The translations under genes were made by a program, and so were the position numbers. From Promethearchaeota archaeon (GTDB taxonomy: Archaea > Asgardarchaeota > Lokiarchaeia > Sigyniarchaeales > SOKP01), in the NCBI GenBank assembly GCA_019894975.1, contig JAGXNO010000017.1, positions 1-64,000 of the forward strand: 64,000 nt of DNA, given 5' to 3'. Shown here piece after piece: positions 45,740 through 53,603 of the stretch (position 1 is its first letter; the number at the start of each line of letters is the position of its first letter). Under the pieces are notes generated by a model. It searched no databases and was not told the origin of the DNA. It saw only the letters and a program-made list of their open reading frames with translations.

Positions 45740-46852
45740 TTAGTAGTTTGAAGGTGTTTTTGATTTGATTTTATGTTTTGGGATAGTTTTAACCTTCCTT
45801 AATTCTTTTTCAAAATCCCTTTTTTCTCTTAAAAATCTTTGTATATCTTTTTCTAACTTTTCTCTTTCTCGCCTTATATTATTTTTTTCATTCTCCAGCG
45901 AAGATTTTTCTTTTGCGATTTGTCTATAATCATCATTTAATTTTCTAAGTTTTTCCTCTAAATTTGGTATTTTATGTGTTAGAGAGTACTTATCTTCGGC
46001 TCGTGGGATCTTTCTTTCTAATTCTTTATATCTTGCATCTTGTTGTCTATTTCTTCTATCTAAATCATTAGAGTCTTTATCTATTTTATCTCTAATTTTT
46101 TTTAATTCTACCTTTTTCTTATCAATTTCACGCGTTTTTAAATCTAAATCCTGTTTTTTATACCTTGTCTTTTCTCTCTCTTCTTTTAATCTTCTCTTTT
46201 CGTCAGATATTCTATTTTTTTCATCAGTAATTTCCCTTTTTAGGTTATCTCTTTCTTTAGATAAATTTTTCACTTCATTCCTTGAATCCATTAATTTATC
46301 TTCTAAATCGTTAATAGTTCTCTCTAAAGCACTTTCTCTTCTTTCCATACCAGGAAGTTTTGTTTTAATATTCTTTAACCGATTCTCTGTGCTTTCTTTT
46401 TCTCTTTCTAAAGAGCTCTTTTCGTTTCTTATATCTCCACGCATGGTATCTAATTTTTCCTGGAATTTTGTTAGTTGAGCATTTTTTTCATTTAGTTCTT
46501 CATTTTTTCTCCTAAATTTTTCTCTTAATTGGCTTTCCTTCAATGCTAAATCATTTTTTTGTTGCTCCATATCATTATTAGCTTTTTTTAAGTCATTTCG
46601 TACCATATCCCGTTTTTCAACAAGATTTTTGACTTCATTTTCTAAGTTCTTCCTTTTCAATTCAAGGTTCTTGATATTATCATTATAATTTTCAATTTGA
46701 TTAACCACTTTTTCCCATTCGTTCTTTTCTTTATCTAACGCAATTCTCTCTTTTTTTATTTTTTTTAATAATTTTTTATCTGGGGAAAGATCTACTTCTT
46801 CATCCGGTGTTTTTTCTCGAATCTGATGTTTGGGAATAGGTTTTTCATCCAT
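45740..46852 (-). CDS. Long charged coiled-coil protein with matching head and tail motifs
   Basis: About 330 aa of K/E/R-rich heptads; IPKHQIREKTP at N-terminus and IPKHKIKSKTP at C-terminus. Confidence 0.8.
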   Translation of the reverse strand: MDEKPIPKHQIREKTPDEEVDLSPDKKLLKKIKKERIALDKEKNEWEKVVNQIENYNDNIKNLELKRKNLENEVKNLVEKRDMVRNDLKKANNDMEQQKNDLALKESQLREKFRRKNEELNEKNAQLTKFQEKLDTMRGDIRNEKSSLEREKESTENRLKNIKTKLPGMERRESALERTINDLEDKLMDSRNEVKNLSKERDNLKREITDEKNRISDEKRRLKEEREKTRYKKQDLDLKTREIDKKKVELKKIRDKIDKDSNDLDRRNRQQDARYKELERKIPRAEDKYSLTHKIPNLEEKLRKLNDDYRQIAKEKSSLENEKNNIRREREKLEKDIQRFLREKRDFEKELRKVKTIPKHKIKSKTPSNY

Positions 46853-47063: not shown

Positions 47064-47453
47064 ATGGAATTTGATGATGAATTTGACGAAGACCTAGAAT
47101 TTGATGAAGATTTGGAAGAAGAAATTAATGAAACTGAAGAGAAAGATTTGACTTCAAAAACTCCTGAAGATAAAGGTGCACCTGAAGGGAAAAAAATATC
47201 CGTCTATTTCATGAGCACGATCGGCCCGGGTGAGAAAAAACAAAAACTACTCATAAATTCAGAAAATCTTGTGGGAGATATTAAAGAAACAGTTGCAAAT
47301 TTATTTGGTTTAGATCCCGCAGATTTCTACTTAAGTTCTGGTGGTGTAACAATGGATGAACAGAACCCCATGAAAGAGTATTATGTTGATGATGGGGATG
47401 ACATACTTTTAATCCCTGCTAGTATTGCGGGGATAATTACTTACAGAAAATAA
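47064..47453 (+). CDS. Ubiquitin-like (UFM1-like) modifier with acidic N-terminal extension and apparent C-terminal propeptide
   Basis: Beta-grasp pattern ISVYFMSTIGPGEKK...DGDDILLIPASIAG-IITYRK. Confidence 0.85.
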   Translation: MEFDDEFDEDLEFDEDLEEEINETEEKDLTSKTPEDKGAPEGKKISVYFMSTIGPGEKKQKLLINSENLVGDIKETVANLFGLDPADFYLSSGGVTMDEQNPMKEYYVDDGDDILLIPASIAGIITYRK

Positions 47454-47483
47454 TCAGATTTTGTAGTAATTTAACCTATTTTT

Positions 47484-48278
47484 TTAAGATTTCTGTTTTC
47501 TTGAGGGAATTAAAGCAATTTCATCATCATCATCAATTTCATAATCATCTATTTGGGATTCGGAATGTAATAAAATCCCACCTGAAGATAAATGAAAATC
47601 GTCTTGCTTATAATTAAATAATATTCCAATCCTTTTTTTAACAGTAGTAATCGAGTCTTTCACATCAACAATAACTATCTTAGTTTTCTCACCAGGTTCA
47701 ACTAAGGATCTTACATATACACGCAGCTGGTCTTTCATTTCAAAAGTATTCATAGGAGGGTTGTAAATAATCTCCTCATCAGTTTTATATTGATTATTTA
47801 ACATGTTATCGATTAAAGTTTTTCTCTCATCAGTGTCAAAATATAGCATTTCTTGAATAAACTGTATCTTTTCTATTTTGGATATATCTAATTGATTTAT
47901 CTTATCTAATTCTTCTTGACTAAAAATAGAAAAGATAAATTTATTAATTAATGGAGAATCTTTGTAGGATTCTTCAGATTCCACATATTTTTCTATTAAA
48001 GGCATAGCATTAAAATAATCTTCAAAAATATCTACTGCATTTTTTTGAATAGATTTAGGTTTTGGCAAAATTTTCTTTTCTCTTATTTTATCAAACGGAG
48101 AACCAGTTGATTGGATTACAGTATAGATTGTACTTGTGGATAATACTGCTACGCTTCCAATATTGAGAGCAAGAAATAAATAAGAGTTTTCTATACGAAA
48201 TAGGAAAAAAGCCATATATAAAAGGATAAAACTGAAATATAGAGCGATGAGACCAATTAACCTATTTTTCTTCCTCAT
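47484..48278 (-). CDS. Membrane-anchored protein with C-terminal Ubl domain of the same family (no terminal Gly)
   Basis: Two N-terminal TM helices; LRVYVRSLVEPGEKTK...FHLSSGG...DDDEIALIPSRKQKS. Confidence 0.85.
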   Translation of the reverse strand: MRKKNRLIGLIALYFSFILLYMAFFLFRIENSYLFLALNIGSVAVLSTSTIYTVIQSTGSPFDKIREKKILPKPKSIQKNAVDIFEDYFNAMPLIEKYVESEESYKDSPLINKFIFSIFSQEELDKINQLDISKIEKIQFIQEMLYFDTDERKTLIDNMLNNQYKTDEEIIYNPPMNTFEMKDQLRVYVRSLVEPGEKTKIVIVDVKDSITTVKKRIGILFNYKQDDFHLSSGGILLHSESQIDDYEIDDDDEIALIPSRKQKS

Positions 48279-48363
48279 GATTTTTTGATTAGATTATTTT
48301 CTAAATTTCTAATATCTAAATTAAAATATAAATTGCTTTGGAATAAAATTGGAGTTTTAATAT

Positions 48364-49035
48364 TCATTCACCTTGGATTGATTTTAACACCTTAGAATAT
48401 TGTTCTAAGTCTAATTTAAATCCATTTCTACCATTTACTTTTTCAATTTTTATCAATTTCAGGTTTTTCAATATATCTAAATATTTTTTAACAGTACTAT
48501 GATTTTTTTTTAATCCATCTGCTATTTCAGTAATTTTGAATGCCTTATTTTCTTCTTTCATAAACGTGATAATGGTTTGGACGAGATCTTTATTCAAATA
48601 ATAGTGAAACTTATCAAACTTTGGATTTGAATCAAATTTGAAGAAAATTCTATGATTATTGAGTTTTTCTGATCTAACAAATTGAAATTTTTCTAAGCAG
48701 GATAGATGCCATAATGCTTGATTACTTCCAATTTTTAGAACTCTCATTATTTCATTAATATTAGAGGGTTTACGATTAATATAATTAAAGATTTCATTCC
48801 TAGTTGGATTTTCAATTATATTATTTTTCATTAATCGAGTTCCAGGAATAATGACTCGTTTTTTTATTAGTGATTTTATTATCAGTTCGATTTTATTTCT
48901 ATTTATATTAGGATTCAATCTTACTCTATTAGAAACAAATTCAATTATATCATTAATTGAAAAAAAGGTCTTTTTTGTTAAATATTCCTTTACTATACTA
49001 AATACGACAGATTCTAGATCTTCCAGAGATTTCAT
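48364..49035 (-). CDS. Tandem winged-helix protein (probable transcription regulator)
   Basis: NPTRNEIFNYI...ALWHLSCLE and ITEIADGLKKNHSTVKKYLDIL. Confidence 0.75.
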   Translation of the reverse strand: MKSLEDLESVVFSIVKEYLTKKTFFSINDIIEFVSNRVRLNPNINRNKIELIIKSLIKKRVIIPGTRLMKNNIIENPTRNEIFNYINRKPSNINEIMRVLKIGSNQALWHLSCLEKFQFVRSEKLNNHRIFFKFDSNPKFDKFHYYLNKDLVQTIITFMKEENKAFKITEIADGLKKNHSTVKKYLDILKNLKLIKIEKVNGRNGFKLDLEQYSKVLKSIQGE

Positions 49036-49313
49036 AGTTTTAAATTCATATCAGGGTTGATTTGCTTGCTTTTCTAGCTTAAAATTCTCTCTAAATCAAT
49101 AAATTATCTTTGATATATATTTATAGACATTCATATAATTTATAATATAATTTCTTAAGATGGGAATAAGCTTTTTTCTTAGTCAAAATTTCTATTAAAA
49201 AAACTTCAAAATCATTCCAATGGGTTTTATTATATCTTTTTATTGTGATTTAATTAAAATATAAAAAATAATAAATCATAAAATTAAAAATAAAAAAAAT
49301 GGAAGTGATATGA

Positions 49314-49649
49314 ATGAGTTTTGAAGATAAATTTGATGAGGATTTAGTTGGGGAGGAACCTGTTAAATCTAAGACTCCTATGTCTAAAATCCCTTCAGCA
49401 GGAAAGAAAATAACATTATATTTCATGTCAACTATTGGTCCTGGTGAAAAAAAGGAGAAATTAACTGTGAATGATGGAAATTGTGTTGACGATTTAAAGC
49501 AAACGTTAGGAAATTTATATGGATTGGATCCTAACGACTTTCACTTATCATCTGGTGGAGTAACTATGGATGAAAATAGTGCACTAAAAGAATATCATGT
49601 GAATGATGGGGATGATATTCTTTTGATCCCTGCGAGTACAGCGGGGTAA
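49314..49649 (+). CDS. Ubiquitin-like (UFM1-like) modifier, mature form ending in -STAG
   Basis: Beta-grasp pattern, free C-terminal Gly, directly upstream of E1-E2. Confidence 0.9.
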   Translation: MSFEDKFDEDLVGEEPVKSKTPMSKIPSAGKKITLYFMSTIGPGEKKEKLTVNDGNCVDDLKQTLGNLYGLDPNDFHLSSGGVTMDENSALKEYHVNDGDDILLIPASTAG

Positions 49650-49681
49650 CCTTATATAACTTTCTTCATAAAATATAATAT

Positions 49682-49720
49682 AAGGGCGTTTAGCCCTTTA
49701 CCTTTTTTTATTTTTTTTAT
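49682..49720 (+). terminator. GC hairpin plus T-tract between Ubl and E1
   Basis: AAGGGC-GTTTA-GCCCTT followed by T7 and T8 runs. Confidence 0.65.
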
Positions 49721-49728
49721 TAATAGTA

Positions 49729-50964
49729 ATGGTGATAATAATGGATAGGGGTTCAGATTTTTTCGGTAAAGAATTATCAGTTGAAGAGAGAAATCTTTAT
49801 GATCGTCAATTTCGTCTAGAGGGGTGGTCTCAGAAATTGGTAAAAAATTCGAGAGTTTTAATAGCAGGAGTAGGCGGATTAGGTTGTGAAATTGCTAAAA
49901 ACTTAGCTATGCTCGGAGTTGGTTATATTGATCTTGTTGATTTAGATATAATTGAACACTCTAATTTAAATCGCCAAATTCTTTTCACGGGGGCAAAAAT
50001 TGGTGAGGCTAAAGCAGTTGTTGCCGCTAGAAAATTACGAGATATTAATCCTAACATCATTGTTAAAGGGTATCACACTTCCTTAGAGCGGTTGAATCCG
50101 GCAATTTATAAAGCTGCCGACGTTATCATAGGAGGTCTTGATTCCATGAATGCACGTTTAAATTTAAATGCTCAATGTATTAGGTTTAAAAAACCTCTTG
50201 TAGATGGAGGGGTATCTGGTTATCATGGTCATGTATACACAATCTTTCCTTATCAAAATGCCTGTTATGAATGTAATCCATTACCTGTCGGTGAAGATGA
50301 TGAAATGGCTGCTTGTACCGTTGTAGGAATCCCCAGAAAAAGAATTCATTGTGTCTTCAAAGGGGATATGGCATTTAAAGAGAAATTTGACAGAGATCCA
50401 AATCCAAAGAATTTAAAGGATATTAAATTTATTCAAAAGATTGCGAATGATTTAGTTACCAAACATAATTTTTTACCTGAATACACAGAAGATGATATTG
50501 TAAAAATTATTGATAGACACGATCCTGGGATAATAACCATCAATGCAGTTATTTCCGCATTACAGTCCCATGAAGCTATAAAAATTCTTCACTGGAGAAA
50601 AAAACATAGTGGATTAGGAGAACCTATTCAAAGTTATATAATTTTCAATGGAATAACAATGAAATTCTATCATATTGAAAAACAGAGAAATCCAGAATGT
50701 TCTCAATGTGGTAAACATGTTCGAAGAGTTTCAATTAAATTAAGATCTCAATCCCCCTGTAGTAAAATAATTGAGATCTTAGAGAAAAATGGATTCAAAT
50801 TAGATCCAGATTCTGAACCAATCCTTACTTTATTAGATTTCAATGATATAAAAATTGTAGATTTAGAACAAAACCCGGATGAAAATAATTTAAGAAATTA
50901 TGATTTAATTACAGCTGCGGGGTTTACAGCCGGAGAAATCTTCATAACTTTAAAATTGATGTAA
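49729..50964 (+). CDS. Ubl-activating enzyme E1 (Uba2/Uba3-like architecture)
   Basis: YDRQ, GVGGLGCE, SNLNRQ, GLDS, Zn pairs CYEC and CSQC, catalytic ACTVVGIPRKRIHC, ~80-aa C-terminal domain. Confidence 0.92.
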   Translation: MVIIMDRGSDFFGKELSVEERNLYDRQFRLEGWSQKLVKNSRVLIAGVGGLGCEIAKNLAMLGVGYIDLVDLDIIEHSNLNRQILFTGAKIGEAKAVVAARKLRDINPNIIVKGYHTSLERLNPAIYKAADVIIGGLDSMNARLNLNAQCIRFKKPLVDGGVSGYHGHVYTIFPYQNACYECNPLPVGEDDEMAACTVVGIPRKRIHCVFKGDMAFKEKFDRDPNPKNLKDIKFIQKIANDLVTKHNFLPEYTEDDIVKIIDRHDPGIITINAVISALQSHEAIKILHWRKKHSGLGEPIQSYIIFNGITMKFYHIEKQRNPECSQCGKHVRRVSIKLRSQSPCSKIIEILEKNGFKLDPDSEPILTLLDFNDIKIVDLEQNPDENNLRNYDLITAAGFTAGEIFITLKLM

Positions 50965-51052
50965 TTATTTAACCAAAAATCATATTAAATGATATAAAAC
51001 AAAATAAAATTAAAAAAAATCATAAACAGAAGATAAAGAAGAGGTATAAAAA

Positions 51053-51580
51053 ATGAGTATAAGAAGTAGTCGTATTTCGCAAGATTTTGCGGGATTGAAA
51101 AAAATGCTTAAAGAAGGTACTCTTGTTCAATTAAAACCATTTAATCCAAAAAAGAAGAGTATTGACCATTTAGCTTTAGCGATTAAAGGGCCTAGAAGTA
51201 CAGCATATGCAGGTGGTGTCTTTAAATTGGAAATGAAATTTCCTACTCAGTATCCTAAAAAACCACCCTTTGTAAGATTGCATACTCCTATATGGCATCC
51301 AAATTTTTGGCCAAAACCTACTGAATATAAAGGACAGAGAAATATATGCTTAGCATTAGTAGATCCTTCCTTGATTGGTAATAAAGGAGGTTGGAGTCCA
51401 ACGAAAACTGCTGTAACTGTTGTTCAGGCTATAATTGCAATGTTAAATACCCGTGGTAAATATGTTAATCCCACAGACGTTTTTAATAAAAAAGCTGCAA
51501 TTGAAATGATGAAAAACCCAAAGTTTTTTGAGAAAAAGGTTAAAAACCTAGTGAAAAAATATGCGAATAAAAAGTGGTGA
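51053..51580 (+). CDS. Ubl-conjugating enzyme E2
   Basis: IKGP..TAYAGGVF, YPKKPP, WHPN, ICL catalytic Cys, WSP. Confidence 0.93.
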   Translation: MSIRSSRISQDFAGLKKMLKEGTLVQLKPFNPKKKSIDHLALAIKGPRSTAYAGGVFKLEMKFPTQYPKKPPFVRLHTPIWHPNFWPKPTEYKGQRNICLALVDPSLIGNKGGWSPTKTAVTVVQAIIAMLNTRGKYVNPTDVFNKKAAIEMMKNPKFFEKKVKNLVKKYANKKW

Positions 51581-51588
51581 TTTCCTAA

Positions 51589-52401
51589 ATGGAAGAAAGA
51601 GAGTTAGCTAATGATTCAATTAAAGATGTAATTAAAAAGAAGATTAAAGAAAAAATAAAAAAGGAATTATTAGATGAAATATGTGAAGAACTTAAATTAG
51701 AAGAAGAAGAATTAACAGAAGAAATTGCTTCAATGCTTACACAGAAATCATCTACTAAACCAATTATAAAACATTCAAAGGAACCTACAGCTAAAATGGT
51801 GGGAGTTAAAAAAGTTGAAATTCAAACAGAACAGGAAATTAAAAAAGAAATTTATATTTCTATAAAAGCAATCCTTAAAATCGCAAGTCATTCCCTTAAA
51901 TATGCTAATTCTAAGATTCCAAAAAACAATTGGGTGGAAGTCATTGGACTTCTCGGAGGGAAATTAGACAGTAATGAAATACTCCATATCGAAGATGCCT
52001 ACCCTATGGGTCATGGAACAGCAGTTTATGCAGAAATCAAAGATTATAAGAATTATGTGAGAGCTTTTAATGATATTAAAAAACAAAAATTATTTATGTG
52101 TGGATGGTATCATTCTCATCCAACTTTCGGTTGTTTCATGTCTAGGGAAGATATGGGGACTCAAGAAAGATACCAAAAACTTTGGGATAAAGCTGTTGCT
52201 CTTGTTATAGATCCTTACCTTATTGATGGAACATCTACGGGATTTGAAATTTATCGTGCAAATTTGAAGTCAAAAACATGGTATCCTTTGTTATATGGGA
52301 TTAAAGGGTCATTAGATATACGTATGTTACCAGATATATTAGCATTTATGAATCCTTTAATTCAAGGGAAACCTGCATATTTAGAATATGATGAAGAATA
52401 A
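51589..52401 (+). CDS. JAMM/MPN+ metalloprotease (Rpn11/CSN5-like)
   Basis: EVIGLL, GWYHSHPTFGCFMSRED, ALVIDP. Confidence 0.92.
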   Translation: MEERELANDSIKDVIKKKIKEKIKKELLDEICEELKLEEEELTEEIASMLTQKSSTKPIIKHSKEPTAKMVGVKKVEIQTEQEIKKEIYISIKAILKIASHSLKYANSKIPKNNWVEVIGLLGGKLDSNEILHIEDAYPMGHGTAVYAEIKDYKNYVRAFNDIKKQKLFMCGWYHSHPTFGCFMSREDMGTQERYQKLWDKAVALVIDPYLIDGTSTGFEIYRANLKSKTWYPLLYGIKGSLDIRMLPDILAFMNPLIQGKPAYLEYDEE

Positions 52402-52430
52402 ATAGTGAAATAGAAGGTGATCAGATAATC

Positions 52431-53603
52431 GTGGTGAAAATTAAAGCAATAACGCTAATAATACTTGTGTTCACATTTATTGGGATAATTCATGGTGCAA
52501 TCTTAAATTCTGTTAATGTATTTGTAAGTTGGATATTTATCGGAATCTGGCTAATTTTTTCTTTTAAAGTTTTAAAAAATATTAAACAACATCGCGAATA
52601 TAACTCACCTCATAATACTGCCTTTTTTACAATTTCTCCTGTATTTATTGGAATTTTCTATTCAATTTGGGGGAATTTTACGGTTTTATTAGGTGAAGAT
52701 TTATTGGAAGGTTCAGATTTATTTTTAAGTTGGTGGAGTATTATCTTTGGAACTCCGTACATTTTATATAGTGCAATTTCTTTATACCGTTGTTTTAAAA
52801 AATATAATGTAATATATTTTGGAACAAAATCTATTGATGCACGTAAATTTGGTTATATGCTGAGTATCTCCATTCTTCTTTTCATTATTATATATTGGAT
52901 AAGTTTTTACTCCCTTATCGAATTCTATGACCTTAATCTTTTTATTTTACTAATAAGTACTATCTTAATAATACTTATCCCAGGATTATTCGGAACACGA
53001 TCAAGGTTACCACAATTAACAAGAAACTACATAACAGAACGTACAAATAGGTTAAATCAATTAACATCACCTAGAAGCAATACGACACCTCAAAGATATA
53101 GAAAAAGCGTTCGAACAACAACAAATTCATCTCCAACACCCTCAACTAGATCCGTAACTAATAGATCAAGATCAGTTAGTCATTCATCAAGATCCACACC
53201 AACCTCACAAAGACGATCTACGACTTCAAGGTCTAAAACAACAACAAGAACTACAAGTAGAAGTCCAACAGGAACAAAGGTAAGTAGTAAACAAAGTACT
53301 AGGAAAATTACCAACTTTAATCTATATAAACCGAAAGCCGGACGCTTGTCAACGGAGGATTTTAAATGTATCTTTTGTTTTAAATTACCGAAAATTCCTG
53401 AAGACAGAGGAAGAGGAATAATATTATGTCCTAATTGTCGATATCCTGCTCATGCAGATGAATTTAAGGATTGGTTGCGAAGTTCAAATCTCTGTTCTCG
53501 ATGCAACGCAACAATTCCAGCAAGTTATAAAAAAAATCCTAAAATACTGACTGTCAAAAATTATATAGTTGTAGTCAAGCATTTTGTAAATAATAGGAAA
53601 TAG
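52431..53603 (+). CDS. Multipass membrane protein with S/T/R-rich linker and C-terminal RING-like domain (candidate E3)
   Basis: About six TM segments; CIFC...CPNC-x4-H-x2-E...W...CSRC. Confidence 0.8.
   Translation: MVKIKAITLIILVFTFIGIIHGAILNSVNVFVSWIFIGIWLIFSFKVLKNIKQHREYNSPHNTAFFTISPVFIGIFYSIWGNFTVLLGEDLLEGSDLFLSWWSIIFGTPYILYSAISLYRCFKKYNVIYFGTKSIDARKFGYMLSISILLFIIIYWISFYSLIEFYDLNLFILLISTILIILIPGLFGTRSRLPQLTRNYITERTNRLNQLTSPRSNTTPQRYRKSVRTTTNSSPTPSTRSVTNRSRSVSHSSRSTPTSQRRSTTSRSKTTTRTTSRSPTGTKVSSKQSTRKITNFNLYKPKAGRLSTEDFKCIFCFKLPKIPEDRGRGIILCPNCRYPAHADEFKDWLRSSNLCSRCNATIPASYKKNPKILTVKNYIVVVKHFVNNRK

Follow-up and report, generated by a model that had tools for sequence, protein, structure and literature searches.

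We analysed a 64,000-nucleotide stretch (the window) that corresponds to contig C84 of an Asgard genome of 3.9 Mb (about 30% G+C, 95% complete, 8.6% contamination), in which the region 47064-53603 holds a ubiquitin-style protein-tagging operon. Close homologues of the proteins encoded in the window carry the labels Promethearchaeota or Lokiarchaeota, and open reading frames were found at all coordinates given for this region by the initial annotation, which had described a complete co-oriented set of tagging genes with intact motifs; the open reading frames, the Pfam matches and the motifs read from the sequence all support that description. The operon comprises, in order on the forward strand, a ubiquitin-like protein (Ubl) in mature form, which we call UblB (49314..49649, 111 residues; PF00240, 26.4 bits against a cut-off of 25.4), a single-chain E1 activating enzyme with a catalytic cysteine (49729..50964, 411 residues; ThiF, 4.9e-60), an E2 conjugating enzyme of UBC fold (51053..51580, 175 residues; UQ_con, 2.4e-25), a JAMM metalloprotease similar to Rpn11 and CSN5 (51589..52401, 270 residues; JAB, 8.7e-16), and a polytopic membrane protein with a C-terminal variant RING (52431..53603, 390 residues), a candidate RING-type E3 recognized from hydropathy, profile and fold. 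Both of the upstream Ubl paralogues reported earlier are present as well, namely UblA on the forward strand (47064..47453, 129 residues), a precursor-like modifier with a beta-grasp domain that is 66% identical to UblB, and a membrane-anchored Ubl-domain protein on the reverse strand (47484..48278, 264 residues; PF00240, 1.6e-5).

UblB is laid out as a disordered arm (residues 1-30, MSFEDKFDEDL...KSKTP), a beta-grasp domain (residues 31-106) and a C-terminus that reads IPASTAG immediately before the stop codon. Its last lysine is K92, and cleavage by trypsin would therefore leave a remnant of 19 residues. The single terminal glycine had been noticed before, and it proves to be a trait of the whole family rather than a local oddity. 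Among the 120 closest homologues of UblB, which are 78-91% identical to it and end in ...IPAS[TI]AG, 113 stop directly after Ala-Gly (AG) and the remaining seven continue for two or three residues. The wider family was gathered from 1.8 billion representatives at 50% identity and amounts to about 45 clusters, after which the polyubiquitins begin; P106, A110 and G111 do not vary among 40 divergent members, in which the motif reads [LI][IL]P-x-S-T-A-G. The C-terminal Gly-Gly (GG) of the ubiquitin family is therefore absent, Ala-Gly being invariant in these 40 members and in 120/120 of the closest homologues, and a Ubl that adjoins an E1 always ends in AG or in AG plus a short tail.

The precursor-like forms follow the same scheme. 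UblA consists of an acidic N-terminal arm, an SKTP motif and a beta-grasp domain that runs to IPASIAG and is then extended by IITYRK (AG plus six residues), and tails of 1 to 6 residues after AG were found in about half of the 50%-identity clusters. There are also head-to-tail repeat proteins whose units end in ...STAG, with three complete units in P0121, two in P0122 and one in P0138, and in each of them the acidic arm of the next unit follows directly after ...STAG; these poly-Ubl genes are an archaeal counterpart of polyubiquitin genes. Because short tails and head-to-tail repeats occur here as they do in pro-ubiquitin and polyubiquitin, AG appears to be the site of processing and conjugation, and by analogy we infer that the AG-ending Ubl would be attached covalently to lysines through E1 and E2 thioesters. 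Many family members are fused behind N-terminal regions of 150-480 residues, with the AG end still present. The membrane-anchored paralogue departs from the scheme: it has two N-terminal hydrophobic helices (hydropathy peaks at residues 10-26 and 35-51) and a C-terminal Ubl domain that runs to LIPSRKQKS with no glycine, and its orthologues keep the IP and the basic tail and likewise lack the glycine. Since it is without a terminal glycine, this protein could not be conjugated.

Several further features of the modifier family were observed. The N-terminal arm (49314-49410 in the window, compared across loci L045-L060) has an acidic-aromatic start, for example FDEFDEDL, followed by one to three [SK]KTP repeats, and both elements are conserved. 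One sub-family (P0125-P0130, P0135, P0144, P0152 and P0157) consists of proteins of 250-340 residues that begin with a CxxC element resembling a zinc ribbon (YNCPKC, for example) and have the AG-ending Ubl at the very C-terminus, and in one genome two such genes lie directly after the membrane RING gene (L054:12703-14658). The Ubl of these proteins would be freed only by a cut in front of the Ubl domain; alternatively, they may be Ubl-domain proteins that can themselves be conjugated through the AG end. In the host genome, stand-alone mature copies of the AG-ending Ubl occur at C26:789-1121 and C162:4104-4436 (86-87% identical to UblB), in near-identical contexts beside genes of 376-379 and 334-385 residues, and they resemble strain variants of a single locus. 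A second copy outside the operon is present in sister genomes as well.

To which family the modifier belongs was addressed by profile and structure. The Pfam ubiquitin profile PF00240 matched 39 of the 40 divergent members (best 1.8e-12) and Rad60-SLD matched 28 of them, while Pfam Ufm1 (PF03671) matched none of the 40 at E values up to 10, gave no match among 201 Asgard genomes at E values up to 0.001, and did not match the operon Ubls when the host genome itself was searched. A profile of the AG family run against PDB sequences retrieved ubiquitin, ISG15, Bacteroides ubiquitin and ubiquilin. The PDB entries 8HM1-3 among the sequence matches proved to be Bacteroides ubiquitin homologues and not Asgard proteins. 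The AlphaFold2 (AF2) model of UblB has a predicted local distance difference test (pLDDT) score above 89 for residues 31-110, and Foldseek placed Caldiarchaeum ubiquitin first (6FNO, 2.7e-8; also 6FJ7), with SUMO1, ISG15, NEDD8 and ubiquitin among the other matches. In the VIA comparison the model reached Z scores of 14-15 for ISG15 and ubiquitin, with a root-mean-square deviation of 1.0-1.7 over 74-80 residues, and in an unbiased VIA-wide search of 48,161 PDB cluster representatives the best 50 (Z 14.7-12.0) included ubiquitin, ISG15, Dsk2, Fubi, Hub1, SUMO and FAT10. UFM1 was not among the best 50 of Foldseek, VIA or VIA-wide, and absence from such lists is not proof of dissimilarity. Two ESM Atlas searches with the AG-ending Ubl returned PF00240 clusters only. 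The AG modifier is a ubiquitin-family protein and not a member of the UFM1 family, so the designation UFM1-like modifier given in the initial annotation is not supported, Pfam, profile, structure and the hhalign comparisons given below all placing the Ubl with ubiquitin; it should be replaced by the label ubiquitin-family modifier with an Ala-Gly end.

The enzymes of the operon are of familiar types. The E1 has the ThiF adenylation fold with the loop G47xGGxG (47-52), CxxC pairs at 179 and 324, and a catalytic Cys196 in CTVVGIPRKRIHC, where the motif CTx4Px4HC spans 196-208 within an inserted segment; it has no rhodanese domain, and its residues from about 330 to 411 gave no Pfam match. Against PDB sequences it scored 131 bits for UBA2, 130 for UBA1, 127 for UBA3, 114 for MoeB, 61 for UBA5 and 37 for ATG7, and the alignment with UBA2 spans the region of the catalytic cysteine. 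On sequence comparison the E1 is of the canonical UBA1/2/3 type, which agrees with its earlier description as a Uba2/Uba3-type enzyme rather than a UBA5 (131 against 61 bits), and because the scores for UBA2, UBA1 and UBA3 are tied no particular leaning towards SUMO or NEDD8 is seen. The E2 carries HPN at 82-84 and Cys99, with a spacer of 14 residues, and its best PDB matches are Ubc15, Cdc34/UBE2R and UBE2T; UFC1 (PF08694) was not found in the host genome, which is 95% complete, and the E2 is of the HPN type and not a UFC1, as had been proposed. In the JAMM protein the metalloprotease residues E117, H175-S-H...S186-x-x-D189 are intact, a charged helix lies at the N-terminus, and the best PDB match is the Rpn11-like protein of Caldiarchaeum (1.4e-15), followed by Rpn11, CSN5 and AMSH. 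By analogy with these enzymes, the JAMM is predicted to mature the Ubl and to remove it.

The last gene of the operon encodes a protein with five clear and one weaker hydrophobic helix (residues 9-190) and a linker of about 100 residues, 61% of them Thr, Ser or Arg, ahead of a conserved C-terminal domain. The protein as a whole gave no significant Pfam or NCBIfam match, and 304 of its 304 database homologues are named hypothetical protein and have no Pfam domain. C313, C316, C333, C336, H341, E344, W348, C355 and C358 are invariant across 15-23 orthologues, and a profile of the C-terminal 95 residues matched RNF24 (4.8e-5), RNF4 (3.5e-4), EL5, Arkadia/RNF165, RNF38, listerin and HRD1. In the alignment with RNF24, Glu344 takes the position of the sixth ligand, a cysteine in RING-H2, and Trp348 falls on the conserved tryptophan that contacts the E2. 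The AF2 model of the domain (pLDDT 89.5) retrieved almost exclusively RING and U-box folds among the best 50 of Foldseek (probability up to 1.00, E 5e-3), the best 50 of an unbiased VIA search over 48,161 chains were all RING or U-box (Z 8.1-5.1), and the helices on either side of the domain are similar to those in dimeric RINGs (for example TRIM, RING1B and Rad18). The membrane-linked, RING-like ligase candidate that the initial annotation had put forward thus gains support from hydropathy and from the profile and fold matches, and on these sequence and model comparisons the protein is a candidate E3 ligase.

The conservation of the gene set was examined in the same 201 Asgard genomes, and 16 loci from six GTDB families were compared for synteny. 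The AG-ending Ubl was found in 71 of the 201 genomes, distributed over seven GTDB families, and the order Ubl-E1-E2-JAMM-membrane RING in 16/16 loci from the six families, as expected if the gene order is conserved; in family f5 the order is split in four of five loci into E2-JAMM-RING and Ubl-E1, about 1.6 kb apart. With the membrane RING counted as present at E values below 1e-18, both proteins were present in 63 genomes, the Ubl only in 8, the RING only in 3 and neither in 127, and the 8 genomes with the Ubl only are mostly fragmented or incomplete. Relatedness makes the genomes non-independent, and no statistic is therefore given for this co-occurrence. Within the same family, one genus is without both the AG-ending Ubl and the membrane RING and has kept GG-ubiquitin; it includes a genome of 100% completeness in 10 contigs. 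On a further short contig of the host genome, C70:1-1055 (L011), the end of an E1 (56% identical) is followed by an E2 (74% identical), as in the operon. This contig either represents a divergent second operon or comes from a related organism, given the genome contamination mentioned above.

Two reverse-strand neighbours complete the locus. Between the membrane-anchored Ubl and UblB lies a tandem winged-helix protein of ArsR type (48364..49035; HTH_5, 1.9e-9, in two stretches), possibly a local regulator. Only the two closest genera have the arrangement of three Ubl genes plus the winged-helix gene, the winged-helix gene is syntenic only in L045 and L046 among the 16 loci, and orthologues of UblA occupy the same position in genera g1 and g4. 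On the far side of UblA, and divergent from the Ubl genes, a coiled-coil protein of 370 residues is encoded (45740..46852), for which Pfam gave weak coiled-coil matches only; an orthologue adjoins the Ubl in 7 of the 16 loci, and in all seven it carries terminal [SEK]KTP motifs at both ends, the KTP element being shared with the arm of the modifier. It is a candidate partner or substrate of the tagging system.

The host genome also encodes conventional ubiquitin machinery away from the operon. An 84-residue ubiquitin that ends in ...QAGG-R is found at C55:13191-13445 (L063:292-543; PF00240, 3.6e-9), with no adjacent E1 or E2 and beside a 141-residue protein without a Pfam match, and its sequence identity is 88-96% within the family and 74-82% within the sister family. 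A second E1 of 532 residues on C142 is nearest to UBA1/UBA6/UBA7 (144 bits, compared with 103 for UBA3 and 100 for UBA2), a UBC-type E2 lies two genes from it and a 2120-residue protein next to it (C142:13384-17227, L061), and elsewhere on the same contig (C142:51875-53515, L062) a 546-residue protein shows UBC-like, RWD and weak prokaryotic-RING matches. The claim of the initial annotation that the operon is distinct from the GG-ubiquitin machinery, whose parts lie on C55 and C142, is supported. Two parallel Ubl systems are plausible, given the separate GG-ubiquitin and the additional UBA1-like E1 and its E2, and the AG system probably works in parallel with a GG-ubiquitin served by the UBA1-like E1; which E1 would serve which tag is suggested by gene adjacency.

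Among known systems the nearest is the operon of Caldiarchaeum subterraneum (Aigarchaeota), which encodes ubiquitin, an E1-like and an E2-like protein, a small RING finger protein and Rpn11 (PMC3082918, PMC5654768, PMC6043591). The same five activities are clustered in both, and in both the E1 is a single chain with its catalytic cysteine in an insertion, the E2 has HPN and tailed precursors occur; the best Foldseek match of UblB is the Caldiarchaeum ubiquitin (CsUb) and the best PDB match of the JAMM is CsRpn11. The differences lie in the tag, which here ends in Ala-Gly instead of Gly-Gly and has an N-terminal arm of about 30 residues with conserved motifs, in the E3 candidate, which here is a 390-residue membrane protein with five to six helices and a variant RING with a glutamate whereas Caldiarchaeum has a small soluble RING, and in the extra Ubl paralogues found here, one of them membrane-anchored. 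GG-type operons homologous to this one have been shown to function in vitro for Caldiarchaeum and for a Helarchaeal system (PMC5654768, PMC6043591, bioRxiv 10.1101/2023.07.25.550441). In Asgard archaea, clusters with GG-ubiquitin linked to ESCRT genes have been described for Odin, Heimdall and Hel lineages (PMC9192718; bioRxiv 10.1101/2023.07.25.550441), and they share with the present operon a eukaryote-like E1, E2, RING E3 and ubiquitin. Those clusters, however, rely on a di-glycine ubiquitin (e.g., a pro-ubiquitin whose tail is SPKN) and on soluble RING E3s, and they are tied to UEV/Vps23, whereas the AG operon has no ESCRT neighbours and the GG-ubiquitin of its genome lies on another contig. 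For Lokiarchaeota the ubiquitin genes were reported in a region separate from the ESCRT genes (PMC9192718), and this region may include the AG locus.

Among eukaryotic systems, the SUMO pathway (SUMO, SAE1/UBA2, UBC9) resembles the AG system in the disordered N-terminal arm of the modifier, in SUMO1 being among the top fold matches, in the Rad60-SLD matches and in UBA2 as the nominal best PDB match of the E1, tied with UBA1 and UBA3; it differs in that SUMO ends in Gly-Gly, its E1 is heterodimeric and its proteases are cysteine proteases. The membrane RING-H2 ligases of eukaryotic quality control (HRD1/synoviolin, gp78/AMFR and the RNF24 type) share their layout with the candidate ligase, in that a polytopic membrane domain comes first and a RING-H2-like finger lies in the cytosol at the C-terminus; the profile matched the RINGs of RNF24, EL5 and HRD1, and the HRD1 RING was among the fold matches; unlike them, the candidate has a membrane domain without detectable homology, an altered pattern of zinc ligands and a long linker rich in Ser, Thr and Arg. 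The likeness to these ligases implies no functional link to retrotranslocation.

Taken together, we consider it likely that the locus encodes a functional protein-tagging system of the ubiquitin type, an Asgard form, found lineage-wide, of the archaeal Ub-E1-E2-RING-Rpn11 operon. In such a system the tag would be produced in its final form (UblB) or as a short-tailed precursor (UblA), and the JAMM would trim precursors after AG and later strip the tag from its targets. The E1, probably a homodimer, would adenylate Gly111 and load the tag onto Cys196, from which it would be handed to Cys99 of the E2. The cytosolic variant RING would then recruit the loaded E2, and on the cytoplasmic side of the membrane the tag would be transferred to lysines of membrane or membrane-proximal proteins, with the membrane-anchored Ubl lacking the glycine probably serving as a fixed docking or decoy domain. 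What the analysis shows directly are the domains, motifs, folds, synteny, conservation and co-occurrence; we infer all of the chemical steps, the membrane site of tagging and the targets, the chemical steps from the homologous GG systems of Caldiarchaeum and the Helarchaeal lineage.

Several points weigh against this reading. To our knowledge, all cognate Ubls of canonical E1s end in Gly-Gly, and acceptance of a penultimate alanine by an E1 of this type is an assumption. The RING has seven Cys/His residues and an invariant Glu in place of the RING-H2 Cys, and its structural Z scores are only 5-8. Since further E2 and RING proteins are encoded in the genome, there may be several ligases, of which the membrane protein is just one. 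The AG family is known from sequences and models only. The locus was seen in no listed run on record as RNA; two marine-sediment libraries labelled metatranscriptomic (X19 and X20) contain near-identical contigs of 170-300 nt on the Ubl, E1, E2, JAMM and RING genes, and as they are flagged as probably DNA they were not counted as evidence of expression.

One alternative keeps the tagging chemistry and changes its purpose, in that the AG system would be the general-purpose ubiquitin pathway of the lineage, for example for proteasome targeting, with the membrane RING merely one linked ligase among others and tagging not dedicated to membranes. The conservation of the tag among its 120 closest homologues is indeed ubiquitin-like, and stand-alone tag genes exist (C26, C162 and the second copies in sister genomes). 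Many other RING-like proteins also match the RING profile weakly, and hhalign placed the AG family nearer to eukaryotic ubiquitin than either of the two other families compared (58, against 20 for the Loki GG-ubiquitin), a rough comparison since alignment depths differ. The membrane RING, however, is the sole E3 candidate of the operon and has been co-inherited and co-lost with the tag, a membrane-anchored Ubl paralogue lies within the locus, and the highly conserved GG-ubiquitin and the UBA1-like E1 are present separately, all of which speak against this reading. We regard a general-purpose role as unlikely.

A second alternative is that the modifier is a true relative of UFM1, either an orthologue or an ancestor, and that the operon is an archaeal UFMylation-like pathway run on canonical enzymes. 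What the two have in common is a single terminal glycine after a non-glycine residue, an IP-x4-G tail, short pro-peptides as in pro-UFM1 and a membrane-associated ligase. The UFM1-like traits of the tail come down to the proline and the non-glycine penultimate residue, for the IP-x4-G spacing is also found in ubiquitin (LVL-RLRG-G). The by-eye alignment with UFM1 offered in the initial annotation is reproduced by hhalign, which pairs LLIPASTA with RIIPRDRV; LVLRLRGG of ubiquitin is spaced alike. For hhalign the UFM1 set comprised 68 distinct sequences, retrieved with a probe that found 100%-identical proteins named ubiquitin-fold modifier 1. The AG family aligned with eukaryotic ubiquitin units at a score of 58.3 (probability 97.3%, E 2e-11) and with UFM1 at 20.3 (11.9%, E 0.0025), co-linear over 73 columns, the UFM1 alignment being shallow and made up of animal sequences only. 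The latter score was higher than that of any of the 150 controls with shuffled columns (mean 10.6, sd 2.1, max 17.3) and higher than those of ubiquitin (11.4) and Loki GG-ubiquitin (9.7) against UFM1, and the faint signal is concentrated in the tail. Because it exceeds every shuffled control, a remote link between the AG family and UFM1 is conceivable.

The bulk of the comparison points the other way. Pfam detects ubiquitin and not Ufm1 in the family, the Atlas neighbours all belong to PF00240, and UFM1 is missing from the best 50 of three structural rankings, the VIA-wide one still standing at Z 12 at rank 50; by fold and profile the modifier is much nearer to ubiquitin, ISG15 and SUMO. The partners differ as well, since the UFM1 pathway (UFM1, UBA5, UFC1, UFL1, UfSP) is set here against a UBA1/2/3-type E1 far from UBA5, an HPN E2 in a genome in which UFC1 was not found, a RING-like ligase, and a JAMM in place of a cysteine protease. 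We consider a true UFM1 relationship of this kind quite improbable. A recent study derived from structures a set of Ufm1 homologues restricted to Asgard archaea, with disordered termini, partial hits and multi-hit proteins (PMC12962969), a description that fits the AG family, and the two sets of proteins may be the same. That these are the AG family, and that the family is the Asgard stock ancestral to eukaryotic UFM1, seems to us unlikely. If it were so, a membrane-directed modifier would have run first on canonical E1, E2, RING and JAMM enzymes and switched to UBA5, UFC1 and UFL1 later, and GG-ubiquitin and the AG modifier would have coexisted as two orthogonal Ubl systems before eukaryotes. 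The earlier suggestion of an ancestral state for UFM1, SUMO and NEDD8 together found no evidence in the present analysis.

That the Ubl is a sulphur carrier of the MoaD/ThiS/SAMP/Urm1 kind or a purely non-covalent adaptor, and no protein tag, is hardly credible: the 114 bits of the E1 against MoeB and weak ThiS matches in 3 of the 40 members (best 0.008) favour it, while an E2 with HPN and cysteine, a RING and an Rpn11-like JAMM as fixed partners, an E1 with an inserted catalytic-cysteine motif and no rhodanese domain, and the ubiquitin type of fold and profile oppose it. A role in defence islands (CBASS/Bil-like) was set aside together with the sulphur-carrier role because the E2/RING/Rpn11 set is of the eukaryote type, conservation is very high and the distribution is vertical and spans whole families.

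As to novelty, the initial annotation had singled out the dedicated operon as not known to be characterized. The operon type has been known since 2011-2017, Ub-E1-E2-RING-Rpn11 operons being established in Aigarchaeota and Asgard archaea; what is new is the AG tag combined with a membrane RING, and neither an Ala-Gly modifier nor a membrane RING in archaeal ubiquitin operons was seen in the searchable literature. The proteins of the AG system are small and, apart from the membrane domain of the ligase, soluble, and related GG systems have been reconstituted in vitro, which makes the system directly testable.

Eukaryotes possess several parallel Ubl systems, among them ubiquitin, SUMO, NEDD8 and UFM1, and the present results bear on the time at which such systems split and tagging became linked to membranes. 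As the locus shows, a second and strongly conserved modifier is retained in many Asgard lineages, with an E1, an E2, a protease and a RING-like ligase embedded in the membrane of its own, and in the family of the host genome a conventional GG-ubiquitin and a UBA1-like E1 occur alongside the AG system. If the system is active, a canonical-type E1 can serve a tag with a penultimate alanine, and both the diversification of Ubl pathways and membrane-localized tagging would predate eukaryotes.

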